A DNA stretch of 64,000 bases from Giardia intestinalis. Lineage: Eukaryota. The notes below the pieces were generated by a model. It saw only the letters and a program-made list of their open reading frames with translations, searched no databases and had not been told where the DNA came from. This document shows, in pieces, positions 7,817 to 14,465 of the stretch. The position numbers and the translations under genes are program-made. The DNA is taken from NCBI GenBank assembly GCA_000002435.2, contig CM018790.1. One strand, given 5' to 3'. How positions within the stretch are numbered: the first letter of the stretch is position 1; every line of letters begins with the position of its first letter.

Positions 7817-10645
7817 ATGGGCATAGATCTGCTTGATAAATACTACTTCAGTGCTACTCTCCTGTCCAGGTGTCCATACGGTGATCTTTATGTTGCAAAT
7901 TCTAGACGTACACGTCTAAACGTTATTGCACGCGTAATCCACCTTGAATTTATAGAATCAACGGTTATGAAGCAGCTAAAAGATGCATATGAGCAAACAA
8001 AGCGCATCGACCACGCTAATATATTTTTATACACGGCTTTCTATCTGGACGAGAATACCATCATTCTCGAGGCCGATACCGATCAACAGACGGTTGTAGA
8101 CGATCTGGCCATAAGAAAGGACCTGGGAACATCGTACACCACTGACGAGCTGTTTTACTTTGCGTATCAGATTGCCGATGCCCTTTACCATATACATTGC
8201 AAGAGCGTCTACGAGGGCCTTCTGTTTTCTGTCAGAGCTGATAGCGTTGTCATAAAGGGAAGCCCTGTGAACCTTATGGACATGAAGGCTAAGTTGAGTA
8301 TATTCACGGCCAAGTGGCCAGCCCAAAATCAACCTACCACGGCAAGGTTTGAGACTCGCCTAGCGGTGTCCGATATCTTTGAGTTCTCAAAGATGTCTTT
8401 TGAGCAGCATGCCCTTTACAACATTACCATGCTTGGGCATCTACTCCTGGAGATGGCCCTTATGAGGCCTCTGGAAAAGGGAACTGCGAACTCAGTATGT
8501 GCAGAAAATGAAGACTTAATTATTAGCACCCACAACACTACCCTTTTAGACCTAATACGATTCTGCCTAAATTCCACCCAATCTCGGCGGACCATCATAA
8601 TTGACATCAAAGACCTTGCAGCATTTGGTCTGGGATTACGGTATGCAGATCAGGAATTCCGTTTCTATAGCTCTCGAGAGAAGGCGTCTACCGTTGACAA
8701 GCTAATAAAGCAGCTCCAGGCGGAGAAGAAGTTTCTCAGCTCAATTAGAGCGCGGGATATTATCATGCAAGCACTCAGAATGGCCACGATGGCATATGAC
8801 AAGGGCTTGGGGCTCAATTATTACGCAGAGGATGTCAGCATAGTTAAGGACACTATTACCATATACCCTGATGCAAGTGTAGACGGGCACATATATGATC
8901 TCCTGAGGGACATGGCGAAGGTGATCGAGCCAGGATTCTTCGCCCAAGAGTTGAGCAGGCTTACTAATGTGAAGGTGGTTCCATCTCTGCACGATGCTGT
9001 AGCAACACTGGAGCCCTTGCTAGCCAAGATAGGAACTAACCAAATGGTCAAGCTTACTGCAATGGAGCTAGTTCTGAGCGAGCTAGCCAGCAAGATCCCG
9101 GAAGATAGCAACAGCTTTACCATCCTGTATGCTCAGCTGTCCGACCAAGGTTTTAGCATCGCCGAAGCAAACAACATTATCTCGATGCTTCCCCAACTTG
9201 TCCACAGACCAATTCTTCTATCTGTCTTTATGCGATGCTGCATTGAAAAGTCGATCTCCCTAAAGGTGCCCTTTCGCCTCGGCAATGTTCAGCCAACCAT
9301 GTCCAAGTTGATGACGGCGTTGTTAAAGGGCGGCCATGGCGTAACATCCTTGAAAGATTACTTGTGCGATCTTGGGCAGCAATGTCTCGCTCCGATCTGC
9401 TTGCTAGATCGCAATAGTTGCAAACTGTTTTGCACTCACCTTACTGCACTTATGGTGGCAGCATGGTATAACAAGCTGGGAGCTATACGCCTGTTATTAG
9501 CAGAGCTAGGGTACTGCACAGACAACCAGATGACTGCGCTTATGTTTGCTTCTGTTGCTGGAAGTACTGAGTCGGTCCCCTTTTTGACAATGGAAGCCCA
9601 ACACAGGAATTCGCTTGGTCAAACAGCTCTGATGCTTGCTGCCATACGTGGTCATATGAACGTGGCCAAAATACTAGCGCCCCTAGAGGCCGGGATACAG
9701 GACTGCCGGGGAAGAACTGCCCTCATGTATGCAGTGCAGCAGGACAATCCAAAGATGGTGCAGCTCTTGTTAGAGTATGAAAGTGGATACCAAGACAGTG
9801 ATGGCAATACAGCTCTGATGTATGCGATTTATCGCAACTCCCTAATATATACAGAGCTTCTATTTCGTTACGAATCAGCAAAACAAACAAAAGATAACAT
9901 GACCGCACTTCTGTTCGCCATTAGAGGCAACAAGCCCGACCTAATACAGCTACTACTTCCCATGGAGGTATCTCTAACCACGACGACTGGAGAAACGGTC
10001 TTAATGTATGCAGCTCAAGCTGGGAACGAGCAACTTGTTCGTCAGTTGATAAACCTATATCCTAAACTTGCGCTGAACCGACAGGATGGCACAGGATGGA
10101 CTGCTCTAATGAGGGCAGCCCAGATGGGCTATGAGAATATTGTAAAACTGCTTCTACCACATGAGGGTGGTCGACAAACCAACGATGGCACCACAGCACT
10201 TATGATTGCCACCAAAAACCATAGTAACAACATAGTTCTTGTCCTTCGAAAAGAGGAACGGAGGCTTACAGACAAAAATGGAGATACAGCACTAATACAT
10301 GCCGCTAGAAACGGAAACATAAATGCCATTCGCTTGCTAAAGAGTTACGAGGCTGGTCTTCTGAACAATGACGGGTACACTGCTCTGATGGTAGCAGTCA
10401 AACAGGGGTATGTTGATCTTGCAGATGAATTGTTCTTACCGGAATATAAAGTACGTGCATACTCTGGCCTGAGTGCTCTTGGTGTAGCGCATGCAACAAG
10501 GAATCGCGCCATATTAGAACTATTTGCCAAGAAGATGGAAGAGCATTGTTCTTTAAACCCAAAGCACAACCAGGAGATGGAGCTAACTTGGTCACCAATT
10601 CACTATGCTACCCCCTTCACAGCCGTGAATACAGAGCCGCAATGA
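7817..10645 (+). CDS. NEK-family pseudokinase domain plus C-terminal ankyrin repeats (Giardia 'Protein 21.1'-like)
   Basis: The N-terminal region is kinase-like but has no GxGxxG, HRD or DFG motif. The C-terminal half carries more than 10 ankyrin repeats with TALMxAA/NxxG units (TALMFASVAGS, TALMLAAIRGH, TALMYAVQQDN and others). ATG at 7817. Confidence 0.75.
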   Translation: MGIDLLDKYYFSATLLSRCPYGDLYVANSRRTRLNVIARVIHLEFIESTVMKQLKDAYEQTKRIDHANIFLYTAFYLDENTIILEADTDQQTVVDDLAIRKDLGTSYTTDELFYFAYQIADALYHIHCKSVYEGLLFSVRADSVVIKGSPVNLMDMKAKLSIFTAKWPAQNQPTTARFETRLAVSDIFEFSKMSFEQHALYNITMLGHLLLEMALMRPLEKGTANSVCAENEDLIISTHNTTLLDLIRFCLNSTQSRRTIIIDIKDLAAFGLGLRYADQEFRFYSSREKASTVDKLIKQLQAEKKFLSSIRARDIIMQALRMATMAYDKGLGLNYYAEDVSIVKDTITIYPDASVDGHIYDLLRDMAKVIEPGFFAQELSRLTNVKVVPSLHDAVATLEPLLAKIGTNQMVKLTAMELVLSELASKIPEDSNSFTILYAQLSDQGFSIAEANNIISMLPQLVHRPILLSVFMRCCIEKSISLKVPFRLGNVQPTMSKLMTALLKGGHGVTSLKDYLCDLGQQCLAPICLLDRNSCKLFCTHLTALMVAAWYNKLGAIRLLLAELGYCTDNQMTALMFASVAGSTESVPFLTMEAQHRNSLGQTALMLAAIRGHMNVAKILAPLEAGIQDCRGRTALMYAVQQDNPKMVQLLLEYESGYQDSDGNTALMYAIYRNSLIYTELLFRYESAKQTKDNMTALLFAIRGNKPDLIQLLLPMEVSLTTTTGETVLMYAAQAGNEQLVRQLINLYPKLALNRQDGTGWTALMRAAQMGYENIVKLLLPHEGGRQTNDGTTALMIATKNHSNNIVLVLRKEERRLTDKNGDTALIHAARNGNINAIRLLKSYEAGLLNNDGYTALMVAVKQGYVDLADELFLPEYKVRAYSGLSALGVAHATRNRAILELFAKKMEEHCSLNPKHNQEMELTWSPIHYATPFTAVNTEPQ

Positions 10646-11634
10646 TACGGGCATCGATCGTTGCCATTAACAATGTTACACAGCAGGCAGGTGCTATGGA
10701 TCATGTGGGCTTTATGACACTTGAGCTGTGCAACAGAATATCGGGGATCAGAGAGTGGCAGTTGACACAGCACGCAAAGGTCGTCTGAAGCTGCACAGGG
10801 TGTTCCACGGCGGTGACACGTGTCGCACTTTCGGCAGTGTTCCCAGCCGTACTCGGTAGTGAAGACCATGCACTTGGAGCACCCATGGCGAAACAATAAC
10901 CCTCCACACCCTGTACATGGGACCTCGTCTTTATCAGTTTCACAGTTATGGATAGAGTGGTCCAAGTGACAGTGCATGCACTCAATGGTGTCTACTTTGG
11001 TCCAATCAACAGGGTCAATTATCTGGTTATCTAGAAGCACCGTCTCGTAGCAAGCCTTGCAGGACACTTTGGTTGATGATTCAAATCCAAGGGAGGAGTT
11101 TAACCCCTCCACTCTTAGAAGCACACCTGTCATACAGTGATCGCACCCTTGGGTATATCCCATGTAGAGTAGCAAAAACGACGGATTGCCTTCTATGTAG
11201 CTACGCCTTAGCTGTCTGGGATCATTGCACGATTCCAAATGGTTCGAGAGAACGTCCCAAAAGCTCCTCTGAGTTACCTTATCAGCTACGTCACCTGGCA
11301 GAGCGTAAATGACTAGCCCGTGCAGGTAAGTCGAAGCAATGTCTCGCAGCTGCGGCTCGATGATAAAGTATATGTGGGTATCGAGATGCTTGATGCTTTC
11401 AGCAGGCTCGTCATACTGTAAGTGCATAGCCTTCAGAACTGTGCACACACTTGGAAAATGCTTCGTAGAAACCTCTTCAGAAGTAAATGAAACTTCTGTC
11501 ATGCATGCCTCAAAAGATGGGACACTGGCCTGTGCTGCCCGAAACACCCGCTCCCCAAGGGCCTTGTCAACAAACTGCCCCGGCCACAGAAGGTATCCGA
11601 GTGTGCTTTCTTGATACTTGAACAGGTGCTGCAT
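10603..11634 (-). CDS. Cys/His-rich zinc-finger protein, truncated paralog of the CHY/RING (Pirh2-like) gene at 17666-19192
   Basis: C-terminus reads CTGCGGLLFRHGCSKC...EHCRKCDTCH...CVLCQLPL...LKCHKAHMIHSTCLLC...CPYHCG. This parallels the CTCHY plus RING-H2 portion of the downstream paralog. ATG at 11634. Its 3' end overlaps the previous gene by 43 nt. Confidence 0.5.
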   Translation of the reverse strand: MQHLFKYQESTLGYLLWPGQFVDKALGERVFRAAQASVPSFEACMTEVSFTSEEVSTKHFPSVCTVLKAMHLQYDEPAESIKHLDTHIYFIIEPQLRDIASTYLHGLVIYALPGDVADKVTQRSFWDVLSNHLESCNDPRQLRRSYIEGNPSFLLLYMGYTQGCDHCMTGVLLRVEGLNSSLGFESSTKVSCKACYETVLLDNQIIDPVDWTKVDTIECMHCHLDHSIHNCETDKDEVPCTGCGGLLFRHGCSKCMVFTTEYGWEHCRKCDTCHRRGTPCAASDDLCVLCQLPLSDPRYSVAQLKCHKAHMIHSTCLLCNIVNGNDRCPYHCGSVFTAVKGVA

Positions 11635-11654
11635 GTAAGAGGATTTACTAAAGC

Positions 11655-14465
11655 TTACCAGCCGCCGTAGCCCCCGCCAGACGTATTGTCGTACCCACCA
11701 TAACCGCCGGAGGTGTTGTCGTAACCGCCGTACCCACCGGTCGCCCCGGAATCGTAGCCACCGGTTGTCCCAGAGTCATAACCGCCATAGTTCCCGTAGC
11801 CACCATAGCCGCCAGCTCCACTATCGTAGCCTCCGCCGTAGCCAGTATTCTGCGCATTGTATCCGCCGTACCCGTCGTTGTTCTGGCCCCATGCGTTGTA
11901 TCCTGTACCCTCAACCCCCGTGTTATCAACATGGCCTTGCGTGACCTCACCATAACCGCCGGCTGCTTGGGGTGCTGCTTGAGGAATGTGAGGCTGCTGC
12001 TCTGGCATCATTTGCTGTTGCTGCTGTTGCATAGGCTGCTGGTACTGTTGCTGCATTGGTTGCTGCATCTGGTTCTGCTGAACTTGCGGCTGCTGTGCTG
12101 CAGCTTGTGTCTGGGCAGCCGGGTTTGTCGGCGGCTTGAAATTCTGAACCCGAGAATATGCGTCTTTATCTACAAGATTGAAGCATTCGCTGCACGTCCT
12201 GCGGATCTGCTCAAGATCCTGTGCTGTCTCGAGGCCAGGATGATTGATGCCCTTCAGCAGCGCCGGGAGAAACAGCATAGATATCGACTTAGCTGTGCAT
12301 CGCGTGTAGACCTTTTGGGTGAATTCAGCGAAGTATACGACGGCCTTTGGACTCTTGATGATGGGGTCTATCATTCCGTAGATGGCTGGAAGAACTGTTT
12401 CTGCAATATCGTTATCTTGAAGATATGCAATGATGACTGCAAGACATCGGAGACAGGACCCCATCATGGCGTCCGTAGAGGACCCACCCATGAGCCCGAT
12501 GATTTTTGGAGTCAGGGACTTAACAAACGGCTGGGTATACCTGTCAGTGAAGGTCGATATAGTATTGTCCTGCTTCTCTGGGGCTTGCTGAGCCGCCGTA
12601 CCAGCCATCAACGACTCCCTAGAATGGTCCATCATCCAGCACGTGACGTCACCAATGAACGGAGCACACGCAGCAATTGCAGCCAGAGCCTTCTCCTGAA
12701 TCATAGCATTCTTGCTCGAGAGGCAGGAAACCAAAAAGTTAAGATAGCTATAATGCGAGCGAGCCCCAACCTTCTTGTTCGTGAAGAAGGAGGCATACTC
12801 CAGAAGCACGAAGATCACCGTGGTGATTACGCTCTCCTGGTCTGTGTTTATCTGCTTATCGAAGTTGGGAATAAACTTAGTGCGCTCCTTCGTTGACTTA
12901 TCCATGGGTATATCCATATACGGTGTCTGGTACATGAACAGCCTTCCATAGACTTCGATACCCGATGTCCACGCTTGCTGCGTGCTGTGGGTCCCAGGAA
13001 ACTTGGAGCGGTGGTCCGTAAGTGTACATGCAAGAACAATGGGTTCCAGCAGGATGTACAGCTGGTCAGCAGGGATCTCTAACATGTAGGAGTACTGGAT
13101 CAGAAGAGGCACGGTGTATCGATAAATGTCTCTACGAGACAACATGCTAACGATACGAGGCCATATAGCCGCCATGGTGAGATCGACACTCAACATCCGC
13201 TTTTCCAGGCATATGGGGAGCATCTTGGTCAGGAACTGAACCGTTCGTTCCATGATGTTTGAGTCTCCGCTATTCGCTGGGGTCGATGCAGTAAACACCA
13301 TCTCCTTCTTGAGCTCCATGATCTCGTTGGCCACGCGAGCGACGGAGTTCTTGGACAGGAATTCTGTATACATTTGACCGCAATCGCACTCCTCACGAGA
13401 GGCAGCCCACAGGCTTGGCATCGCCGCTTCCATCTGGGAAAGGCAGACCTGCTCGGTGGCATTAATAGTCTGTGTCATGCTATACCATTTCGGAACGGTT
13501 GCCGCATTCTGGGCTGCCGCCGCGGGGCTGATGACGTTTGTAGTGGTCGGTAAACTTGCGCCGAACATCTTGGCACTCTCCTCGCAAAGCTCCTCGGTGC
13601 TCATATGCTGCATGCAGGGGGATGAGCTGCTGTACTTGCACGGGCGTCCACCAAAGATGGTGTAAATGCACGAGGCAAGCTGGAAGGCGTCGGAAACCTT
13701 GCTCGCCTTTTTGTTCTGGAGCATGGACGGACTCATAAAGTGTGCACACGGCCGAGTGAGGGCGCCGGAGTCAGAAGAGAATTCAAAGTTGATCCCCCCT
13801 GGAAGGCAACACGAAAAGCCGACCAGGCGCCACTCCCCGCGCGGAGTGATGGCTATGTTCGCAGGGGTAAGGTTGCCGAAGACGTATCCGTCGTTCTGGA
13901 GAATGCTCAGAGAGCGGAGCAGTGTCATGTACCCATAGGCAATGGAGTCTGGCTGAACATACTGCAGTAGATTTGTGAATGGGTTCGCAGAATAGATGCG
14001 AGGATTAGCGTTGGCAAGCATTTCGTGGTCTGCCTTACGCTTAATGACGTTCAGGCATGTGTGGCCGAACAGCTTATAAAGGGAAGAAAGGGTGCCAACC
14101 AGCGGCTCGGTGACATAGTAGAGGCAATTATTTTCTTCTTGGAGCTGCTCTAGGATGATCAGTATTTCCTTCGCATTCTTCCCGGGAACTGCCGCGTCTT
14201 TGTTGATGAAACTGAAGAACTGCTTAGAGAGGTTGTCTGCCTTCCCGAAGACAAACTTCTCGACGAGCTTCTTCTCTATAACAAAGACCGTCCCGAAGGC
14301 ATTGGACTTCTTGTTCCTTCCAGAGTACATATGCCAGATACCAAAGGTACCTCCAAACCCCAATTGCTTCTCGAGCTCCCACTCCTTGAGTTTAATCTTC
14401 GGCGCATTGGGCGTTGCGCGGGGCTCTATGCGCGATTTGAAGTAGGCTGGAGCTTGTTGCTGCAT
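11655..14465 (-). CDS. SCY1-like pseudokinase with HEAT repeats and a C-terminal polyQ plus Gly/Tyr-rich low-complexity tail
   Basis: N-terminus has LGFGGTFGIWHMYSG...AFGTVFVIEKK...ITPRGEWRLVGFSCCL, compare SCYL1 VSIFVYDVK...AGEWKLGGLDY. A helical-repeat body follows. C-terminus is a Q-rich run followed by (GGYGGYDNTS)-type repeats. ATG at 14465. Confidence 0.7.
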   Translation of the reverse strand: MQQQAPAYFKSRIEPRATPNAPKIKLKEWELEKQLGFGGTFGIWHMYSGRNKKSNAFGTVFVIEKKLVEKFVFGKADNLSKQFFSFINKDAAVPGKNAKEILIILEQLQEENNCLYYVTEPLVGTLSSLYKLFGHTCLNVIKRKADHEMLANANPRIYSANPFTNLLQYVQPDSIAYGYMTLLRSLSILQNDGYVFGNLTPANIAITPRGEWRLVGFSCCLPGGINFEFSSDSGALTRPCAHFMSPSMLQNKKASKVSDAFQLASCIYTIFGGRPCKYSSSSPCMQHMSTEELCEESAKMFGASLPTTTNVISPAAAAQNAATVPKWYSMTQTINATEQVCLSQMEAAMPSLWAASREECDCGQMYTEFLSKNSVARVANEIMELKKEMVFTASTPANSGDSNIMERTVQFLTKMLPICLEKRMLSVDLTMAAIWPRIVSMLSRRDIYRYTVPLLIQYSYMLEIPADQLYILLEPIVLACTLTDHRSKFPGTHSTQQAWTSGIEVYGRLFMYQTPYMDIPMDKSTKERTKFIPNFDKQINTDQESVITTVIFVLLEYASFFTNKKVGARSHYSYLNFLVSCLSSKNAMIQEKALAAIAACAPFIGDVTCWMMDHSRESLMAGTAAQQAPEKQDNTISTFTDRYTQPFVKSLTPKIIGLMGGSSTDAMMGSCLRCLAVIIAYLQDNDIAETVLPAIYGMIDPIIKSPKAVVYFAEFTQKVYTRCTAKSISMLFLPALLKGINHPGLETAQDLEQIRRTCSECFNLVDKDAYSRVQNFKPPTNPAAQTQAAAQQPQVQQNQMQQPMQQQYQQPMQQQQQQMMPEQQPHIPQAAPQAAGGYGEVTQGHVDNTGVEGTGYNAWGQNNDGYGGYNAQNTGYGGGYDSGAGGYGGYGNYGGYDSGTTGGYDSGATGGYGGYDNTSGGYGGYDNTSGGGYGGW
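11658..11960 (-). repeat. imperfect tandem codon repeats encoding (G-G-Y-[G/D]-[S/N/T]) units (prion-like GY-rich tail of the SCY1-like gene)
   Basis: Plus strand shows repeated gtagccaccg/gtaaccgcc/gtacccacc units. The protein reads GYGGYNAQNTGYGGGYDSGAGGYGGYGNYGGYDSGTTGGYDSGATGGYGGYDNTSGGYGGYDNTSGGGYGGW. Confidence 0.8.
11975..12125 (-). repeat. CAG/CAA-rich (polyQ-encoding) tract
   Basis: Plus strand is tgctgctgttgc-rich. The protein reads QQPQVQQNQMQQPMQQQYQQPMQQQQQQMM. On the opposite strand it generates a spurious poly-Leu ORF (11931..12896). Confidence 0.8.

Follow-up and report, generated by a model that had tools for sequence, protein, structure and literature searches.

What does a Gln-rich stretch followed by a Gly/Tyr-rich tail do at the end of a SCY1-like pseudokinase, and is such a tail maintained by selection? 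The question is raised by a 64,000-nucleotide stretch of Giardia intestinalis contig CM018790.1 (the window, hereafter), the minus strand of which carries a single open reading frame (ORF) of 936 codons plus stop at 11655-14465. Exact-sequence look-up found its product to be identical, letter for letter, to 'Kinase, SCY1' of G. intestinalis WB (XP_001707209.1 / A8BGL6, gene GL50803_8805), a name given by both NCBI and UniProt; the gene is thus already annotated, and the window represents DNA of Giardia assemblage A. The Giardia kinome lists ORF 8805 as the sole SCY1-family member, classed as inactive, with 1:1:1 orthology in three strains and serial analysis of gene expression (SAGE) tags that are highest in cysts and excyzoites (PMC3218828). 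An original prediction, made from the letters of the window, drew attention to the interval 11655-12130, which encodes residues 779-936 and the stop codon, as a polyQ stretch followed by FUS/EWS-like repeats. Comparison with orthologues and with SCY1-like relatives from other eukaryotes identifies this tail as a diplomonad-specific, selectively maintained Tyr/Gly variant of the SCYL2-type disordered tail.

Composition, conservation and selection

A Gly/Tyr-rich tail behind a Q-rich stretch is indeed what this interval encodes, and the roughly 170 residues originally assigned to it are an acceptable estimate for a low-complexity tail of ~161-164 aa. Its first part, the Q block (residues 785-833), contains 25 Q in 49 residues; the earlier reading was right about Q-richness and overstated the count, the richest 40-residue window holding 23 Q and not about 30. 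The GY block that follows (residues 836-936, 101 aa) consists of 40 Gly, 16 Tyr, 2 Trp, 9 Thr, 9 Asn, 7 Asp and 5 Ser, among others, with neither Lys nor Arg. It is therefore 40% Gly, 16% Tyr and 9% acidic, has a net charge of -9 and terminates in ...GGYGGW. Recurrent units are GY[DGN] (15 times), GYD (5) and YGGY (5); 8 of the 16 Tyr lie within [GS]Y[GS] triplets, the remaining ones being GY[DN], and Gln is kept in its separate block. Aromatics reach a valence of 0.18 per residue and are never adjacent (a minimum spacing of at least 3 has P = 0.0002 under shuffling). Past a single initial gap of 18, consecutive aromatics lie at distances of 3-8 (median 4). For comparison, the mean composition over ORFs of at least 250 aa in the window is 4.9% G, 3.6% Y and 4.1% Q, and no other ORF of the 64 kb holds a comparable segment. 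The composition of the tail is far beyond chance.

At the DNA level, the region had been described as a tandem codon repeat, which it is not. Tandem Repeats Finder returned weak arrays only, inside the polyQ DNA (12012-12078), and no array in the GY DNA, even at a minimum score of 30. Gln codons are mixed (16 CAG and 9 CAA, with a longest CAR run of 6 codons), tail Gly is encoded by four different codons, and the two terminal 10-residue units of the GGYGGYDNTS type have only 19 of 30 nucleotides in common. The tail DNA is not a clean tandem repeat.

A homology search recovered a 99% allele, a lineage at 87%, Giardia muris (49%) and two Giardia-like sequences (42% and 36% identity), to which a profile search added the Spironucleus salmonicida 'Kinase, SCY1' and one further relative. 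The Giardia-lineage set used below comprises seven orthologues, namely those of G. intestinalis assemblages A, B and E, the 87% lineage, G. muris, and the proteins P0004 and P0005; P0004, P0005 and a more distant homologue, P0028, derive from Logan assemblies. P0004, P0028 and L002, a contig of SRR31929897, represent Giardia-like or diplomonad SCY1 orthologues at 36-42% identity. All seven keep an in-frame acidic G/Y-rich tail with 15-24 Tyr, down to 36% identity. These tails have at most one Phe and 0.18-0.20 aromatics per position, and basic residues are almost lacking in their GY part. Furthermore, the terminal Trp (the W936 column) is invariant in the Giardia lineage and is also found in S. 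salmonicida, whose shorter, Tyr-rich tail (...YGIQQEDTYGYQVEGQYAEQGAY...GGYPTDSNW) has Trp as its final residue. A short motif heading the GY block is conserved as well. G. intestinalis and G. muris share YNAWG, whose place is taken by YNPFG in P0004 and by YDPYG in P0005.

The original prediction had allowed for orthologues that lack the tail and a frameshift relative to them; what we found is that the orthologues keep the tail in frame. The exact GL50803_8805 protein is present on 31 contigs in public data from several sources, the in-frame tails of all orthologues include that of an independently assembled syntenic locus, and the codons bear the mark of purifying selection. The notion that the tail arose from an error of sequencing, assembly or annotation, e.g., through a frameshift, has nothing in its favour and is therefore refuted for all practical purposes.

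Selection was assessed with Nei-Gojobori rates against that syntenic locus (L001), which belongs to the 87% lineage and at which synonymous sites are near saturation (dS >1). With this limit on the ratios, dN/dS is 0.076 in the GY region versus 0.028 in the folded body. All 16 Tyr, both Trp and 36 of 39 Gly of the GY region are identical between GL50803_8805 and L001. The low ratio together with the identity of every Tyr and Trp indicates that the GY block is under purifying selection at the protein level. The Q/linker region evolves much faster, with a dN of 0.24 and 70% amino-acid identity to L001. Q-richness is confined to the G. intestinalis complex; G. muris shows it only weakly, and P0004 and P0005 have P/A/S-rich linkers in its stead. 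As judged from these alignments, the GY tail is conserved under selection across diplomonads, and the polyQ block, which belongs to the G. intestinalis complex, is both younger and looser.

Variation in length follows the same partition. Four distinct full-length 936-aa alleles, the window's included, which were taken as assemblage A by near-identity to WB (cluster members P0001, P0008 and P0013 were among the proteins compared), are equal in length and differ at five residues. Four of these five differences fall in the GY block, all at spacers (G865E, G888S, G894S and T901A); the assemblage-A tail polymorphisms thus affect Gly or Thr spacers and no Tyr. Between assemblages and lineages, the length of the Q/linker block is 55 to 66 residues, and that of the GY block goes from 100 (A and E) through 99 (the 87% lineage) to 91 in assemblage B, which has lost a GGYDSGxx unit of 8 residues and a single Gly. 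Entries of 951 and 961 residues differ by N-terminal gene-model extensions only. The predicted variation in length between isolates was hence found between assemblages and lineages, mostly in polyQ, and was not seen among the assemblage-A alleles; in the sequences compared, repeat-number change exists but is slow.

These data also bear on a view of the tail as low-complexity expansion that is largely neutral, or as an entropic spacer. It would then have no sequence-specific role and be kept by mutational bias and not by function. The fluctuating length and high dN of the Q block are what this view expects, the amino-acid polymorphism of assemblage A is concentrated in the tail, and the residue-by-residue alignment of tails between species is not confident. 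Nonetheless, the GY block has a low dN/dS, even if near-saturated synonymous sites limit its reading, and retains every Tyr and Trp in the comparison with L001. Down to 36% identity, orthologues retain its composition, aromatic density, charge and terminal Trp, and Spironucleus does so in reduced form. Moreover, slippage cannot maintain the tail, because its DNA is not repetitive. We therefore regard a neutral or merely spacing tail as unlikely.

Relation to SCYL2-type pseudokinases

The sole Pfam match in GL50803_8805 is to Pkinase, at 15.9 bits and below the cut-off; Pfam matched nothing in the tail and found no RNA-binding domain. A profile of residues 1-775 built from five diplomonad sequences and run against 1.84 billion representative proteins led to 355 proteins. 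Among the matches looked up, those with a family-specific name were only 'Kinase, SCY1' (Spironucleus) or 'SCY1-like protein 2' (sampled from fish, oyster and sponge), all others having generic names or none. In hhalign, the diplomonad profile matched fish SCYL2 with 98.2% probability, residues 24-274 aligning on 27-263, which correspond to the pseudokinase domain. The catalytic-loop segment VFGNLTPANIAITPRGEWRLVGF pairs in this alignment with VHGNLCPENIILNKSGAWKIMGF of fish SCYL2. Where active kinases have HRDxKPxN, GL50803_8805 reads VFGNLTPANI and fish SCYL2 VHGNLCPENI, so that the catalytic Asp of HRD is replaced by Asn in both proteins; the segment aligned to the 'GFDF' of SCYL2 is VGFSCC.

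Searches of PDB sequences with the full protein and with a six-sequence profile yielded marginal kinase matches only (E ~0.005-0.02). An AlphaFold2 model from a six-sequence alignment was poor overall, with a mean predicted local distance difference test (pLDDT) score of 51.7. Kinase-like strands are visible in it, and residues ~360-775 form stacked helical repeats with block-mean pLDDT mostly at 70-90, interrupted by low-confidence loops at ~484-542 and 607-645. From residue 776 on, pLDDT drops to ~25 with no secondary structure. The top PDB match of this model in Foldseek was Cex1p (3vwa), the yeast SCYL1 orthologue, with an E of 4.6e-6 and a low TM-score that we attribute to the poor kinase part of the model. 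To our knowledge, Cex1p is the only solved SCY1-family structure. The profile search, hhalign, the catalytic loop and the model with its fold match to Cex1p together support SCY1-family membership, in agreement with the source annotation and with the pseudokinase identity originally proposed. Within the family, these sequence matches make the SCYL2 subfamily the best, if tentative, fit for GL50803_8805.

A Cex1p- or SCYL1-like role in tRNA export or COPI traffic, e.g., through contact with the pore or the coatomer, would place the protein outside clathrin-linked traffic. GL50803_8805 and Cex1p share the arrangement of pseudokinase and HEAT repeats, and Cex1p ranks first among the structural matches, which include no other structure of the SCY1 family. 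It has also to be considered that the sole Giardia SCY1 gene (PMC3218828) might merge the roles of several paralogues. Against such a role, the sequence similarity to Cex1p is marginal (E 0.72 in the single-sequence PDB search, and not among the 60 profile matches listed), and Cex1p, with its reported functions in tRNA export and COPI, follows another C-terminal logic. In addition, the catalytic-loop motif fits SCYL2, the specifically named matches that were sampled are all SCYL2 (E ~1e-11 to 1e-12), and a 'hypothetical protein' with W-acidic C-terminal repeats, which we presume to be SCYL1-like, scores weaker (4.6e-8). Nor does the protein end in a dibasic, RKLD-type COPI motif. We thus hold this role to be very unlikely.

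How unusual the tail is depends on what its relatives carry. Among 92 full-length non-diplomonad SCY1-like matches whose last 150 residues were inspected, 63 have C-termini made up of at least 55% S/P/Q/N/G/T/A, and six reach at least 15% Q, one of them 35%. D[LI][LF] occurs in 47 of these tails, DP[FW] in 28 and NPF in 8. An acidic-hydrophobic C-terminal motif ends approximately half of the relatives, e.g., ...DLKDLFG (vertebrate SCYL2), ...DLLG, ...DFLK, ...FDPFA and ...EDWLG. These counts make a long low-complexity tail, sometimes Q-rich, furnished with short aromatic or hydrophobic motifs and hydrophobic at its C-terminus, the family norm. The claim that such a tail is unusual on a SCY1 pseudokinase accordingly fails for low complexity as such and stands for its Gly/Tyr richness, which is lineage specific. 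Over the last 150 residues, the Giardia lineage has 10-15% Tyr, compared with a median of 0.7% (maximum 5.3%) in the relatives, Gly reaches ~20-27% in diplomonads versus a median of 4.7%, and Phe is nearly absent in diplomonads. As a separate observation, the DLKDLFG, DLLG, DFLK, FDPFA and EDWLG endings are spread over diverse eukaryotes (P0036-P0174) and resemble a family-wide terminal linear motif.

GL50803_8805 is like the SCYL2/CVAK104 proteins of animals, plants and other eukaryotes in length and in the order of its parts, i.e., pseudokinase, HEAT-like repeats and a disordered low-complexity tail, which in SCYL2/CVAK104 spans 150-250 residues. Both have the catalytic loop xGN(L/I)xPxNI and an aromatic or hydrophobic residue at or near the C-terminus. 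They differ in the chemistry of the tail. SCYL2/CVAK104 tails are S/P/Q/N-rich with Phe/Leu hydrophobics and often end in D-L-x-D-L-F-G or F-D-P-F-A, whereas the Giardia tail ends in GYGGW. The DPF, NPF and DLL motifs of SCYL2 are missing from the latter, which has only the terminal Trp and YNAWG at comparable positions.

A tail-only search with 82 GY residues found no match at E <=0.001 among 8000 candidates. This result is uninformative on other Giardia proteins, since the composition correction of HMMER removes such matches.

A possible role in clathrin assemblies

According to a review of the family, the C-terminal segment of mammalian SCYL2 binds clathrin and the adaptors AP1/AP2, and its pseudokinase domain mediates membrane association (PMC4774220). 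The data above show which gene this is and to which family it belongs, and they show a tail of distinct composition that is predicted to be disordered, conserved and under purifying selection; the binding partners of the Giardia tail, multivalency as its mechanism and any condensation are what we infer. There is, in our assessment, about an even chance that diplomonads have in this tail their own version of the disordered partner-binding region of SCYL2/CVAK104, built as a multivalent array of aromatic 'stickers' for clathrin/adaptor assemblies. The folded pseudokinase and HEAT repeats are followed by a flexible linker, Q-rich in G. intestinalis, and then by an acidic stretch of ~100 residues without basic side chains. 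In this stretch, 18 evenly spaced aromatics (16 Tyr and 2 Trp, the last always Trp) among Gly/Ser/Thr/Asn/Asp spacers would act as many weak stickers that bind by avidity. Through this array, GL50803_8805 would be anchored on coat, adaptor or accessory proteins of the Giardia clathrin assemblies at peripheral endocytic compartments, where the tail may also join condensate-like networks. The Tyr/Trp array would thereby stand in for the Phe/Leu motifs of the relatives (DPF, NPF, DLL/DLF and the C-terminal D-L-x-D-L-F-G). The Y[ND][AP][WFY]G motif that heads the GY block appears to resemble the endocytic motifs NPF/DPW. A multivalent array of weak ligands would be the simplest reading of an SCYL2-like position combined with predicted disorder, constrained aromatics, a terminal Trp and this NPF/DPW-like motif.

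Published proteomics offers a possible context. GL50803_8805 is listed as bait-specific in three co-immunoprecipitations (co-IPs) with baits associated with clathrin assemblies, in a study on the phosphoinositide-binding proteins of these assemblies (PMC7058353, Tables S3, S6 and S7). Its spectral counts with GlNECAP1 were 15 and 24, next to 14 and 19 for alpha-adaptin, and it was recovered with GlPXD3 (13 and 27) and GlFYVE (3 and 7) (PMC7058353). The main text of that study does not discuss GL50803_8805. Our search of the literature found no paper on the tail or on the function of GL50803_8805; mentions of the gene were limited to tables of the kinome and of co-IPs and to the list of a mitosome fraction.

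Several observations weigh against a clathrin-linked sticker array. The co-IP lists are weak evidence, since many metabolic enzymes are also listed in them (PMC7058353). GL50803_8805 was not found in the examined supplementary files of the clathrin-centred interactome (PMC4954726), and one proteomic study lists it in a mitosome-enriched fraction. The cellular context is for these three reasons suggestive only. Canonical DPF/DPW, NPF, DLL/DLF, clathrin-box, FxDxF and WxxF motifs were all looked for and are absent from the G. intestinalis tail. The more distant homologue P0028 has a short tail only, which ends in ...AGYY. The predicted disorder of the tail rests on a shallow alignment and on composition, given the low quality of the six-sequence model. 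Finally, the YGGY/YGGW pattern is a conserved feature only in G. intestinalis and G. muris. A gamma-ear-type aromatic-G-x-aromatic motif, read from YGGY (five copies) and YGGW, was considered separately and rejected as a conserved motif, since P0005 and Spironucleus lack it and P0004 has a single copy.

The same composition invites comparison with the prion-like domains of FET proteins, in which evenly spaced Tyr 'stickers' are set among Gly and polar spacers. In this loose sense, the composition first described as FUS/EWS-like is supported, the tail having evenly spaced Tyr among Gly and polar spacers and predicted disorder. Like FUS, EWSR1, TAF15 and hnRNP A1/A2, it combines Tyr stickers and [G/S]Y[G/S] triplets in a region of predicted disorder. 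The resemblance ends there and does not extend to family. GL50803_8805 has no RRM, RGG or zinc-finger domain (Pfam reports only the weak Pkinase), its tail lacks Arg and is far more acidic, Gln forms a separate block instead of mixing with Tyr, and nothing argues for common descent.

A stronger version of this comparison holds that the tail is a FUS/EWS-type prion-like domain in which Tyr-Tyr contacts and the Q block drive homotypic phase separation without the need for a partner. Such behaviour would be consistent with the aromatic valence and its even spacing among Gly/polar spacers, with the eight [GS]Y[GS] triplets and with the Q-rich block that adjoins the GY region. In yeast, the Q-rich prion-like domains of endocytic coat proteins have been reported to form condensates (PMC8685726). 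Nevertheless, the tail offers no Arg or Lys for Tyr-Arg contacts, a charge of -9 per ~100 residues should oppose self-association, and the Q block is unconserved beyond the G. intestinalis complex. No RNA-binding domain was detected by Pfam, and both the invariant terminal Trp and the Y[ND][AP][WFY]G motif have the look of specific ligands and not of bulk composition. In particular, a GY block without Arg and with a net negative charge is disfavoured as the sole driver of strong homotypic demixing. Partner-independent phase separation is therefore doubtful as the function of the tail.

A sticker array for clathrin/adaptor assemblies would nonetheless be compatible with a place in condensates. 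The yeast coat proteins Sla1/2, Ent1/2 and Yap1801/2, with Q-rich prion-like domains, and the disordered scaffolds Ede1/Eps15 and AtEH1/Pan1 carry low-complexity domains on proteins of clathrin-linked traffic, as GL50803_8805 seems to do, and such domains have been reported to build condensate-like networks at endocytic sites (PMC8685726, PMC9064294, PMC7615741). The families are unrelated, and the yeast coat proteins depend on Gln, while what diplomonads conserve, as far as their sequences tell, is the Gly/Tyr block. By this analogy, GL50803_8805 is a plausible condensate component. A bolder proposal is that a Tyr/Gly sticker-and-spacer domain with a final Trp replaced the Phe/Leu motifs and, as a condensate former, glues or scaffolds the static, non-vesicle clathrin assemblies at the peripheral endocytic compartments. 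If true, it would point to a lineage-specific coat organisation in a cell that lacks most accessory endocytic proteins; we consider it improbable as a whole.

Locus features and implications

The coordinates of the features discussed are collected in the table.

Features of GL50803_8805 and of its 3' flank (positions in the window)
Feature	Position	Strand	Basis
Complete CDS, 936 aa + stop	11655..14465	-	ORF list, exact look-up, kinome ORF number 8805
N-terminal kinase-like (pseudokinase) domain, ~aa 24-340	13446..14396	-	Pfam, hhalign, catalytic-loop comparison
Helical-repeat (HEAT-like) body, ~aa 360-775	12141..13388	-	AlphaFold2 model, Foldseek
Pro/Ala/Gln linker including Q-rich core, aa 776-835	11961..12140	-	Composition
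Q-rich core, aa 785-833	11967-12113	-	25 Q/49 residues
Gly/Tyr-rich acidic low-complexity region, aa 836-936	11658..11960	-	Composition, conservation, dN/dS
Motif Y-N-A-W-G, aa 856-860, at head of dense GY region	11886..11900	-	Alignments
C-terminal Trp codon, W936	11658..11660	-	Invariant alignment column
AGTAAA, 5 nt past SCY1 stop, 9 nt ahead of next gene's ATG	11644..11649	-	Sequence read

The AGTAAA downstream of the SCY1 stop presumably acts as a Giardia polyadenylation signal, which it resembles, and the intergenic spacer that contains it is extremely short. A 343-aa Cys/His-rich ORF (10603-11634, minus strand), in which CxxC and HxxC pairs are numerous and Pfam matches nothing, begins 20 nt past the SCY1 stop codon, and a 343-aa gene occupies the matching position at L001. 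The 3' end of this ORF overlaps by 43 nt the convergent ORF 7817-10645 (plus strand), which encodes a protein of 942 aa. This protein combines a weak kinase-like match at its N-terminus with a long array of ankyrin repeats (Ank_2, E 1.7e-87), as is the architecture of Giardia's expanded NEK and 'protein 21.1' families. A 321-aa antisense ORF that starts with poly-Leu (11931-12896, plus strand) was rejected; it is a reverse-complement reading of the CAG/CAA run and is unsupported as a gene.

Giardia has a highly reduced endocytic system in which clathrin resides in long-lived assemblies and not in vesicles. Since its tail is selectively maintained and the protein co-purifies with components of these assemblies, GL50803_8805 becomes a concrete candidate for a multivalent organiser of clathrin assemblies. 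The finding refines knowledge rather than surprises, because the gene was annotated and a low-complexity tail is expected in the family. More broadly, our comparison shows SCYL2-type tails that hold their position and disorder throughout eukaryotes while the chemistry of their stickers is swapped, with Phe/Leu motifs in most lineages and Tyr/Trp in diplomonads, and this swap is a useful natural experiment on the grammar of disordered interaction domains.

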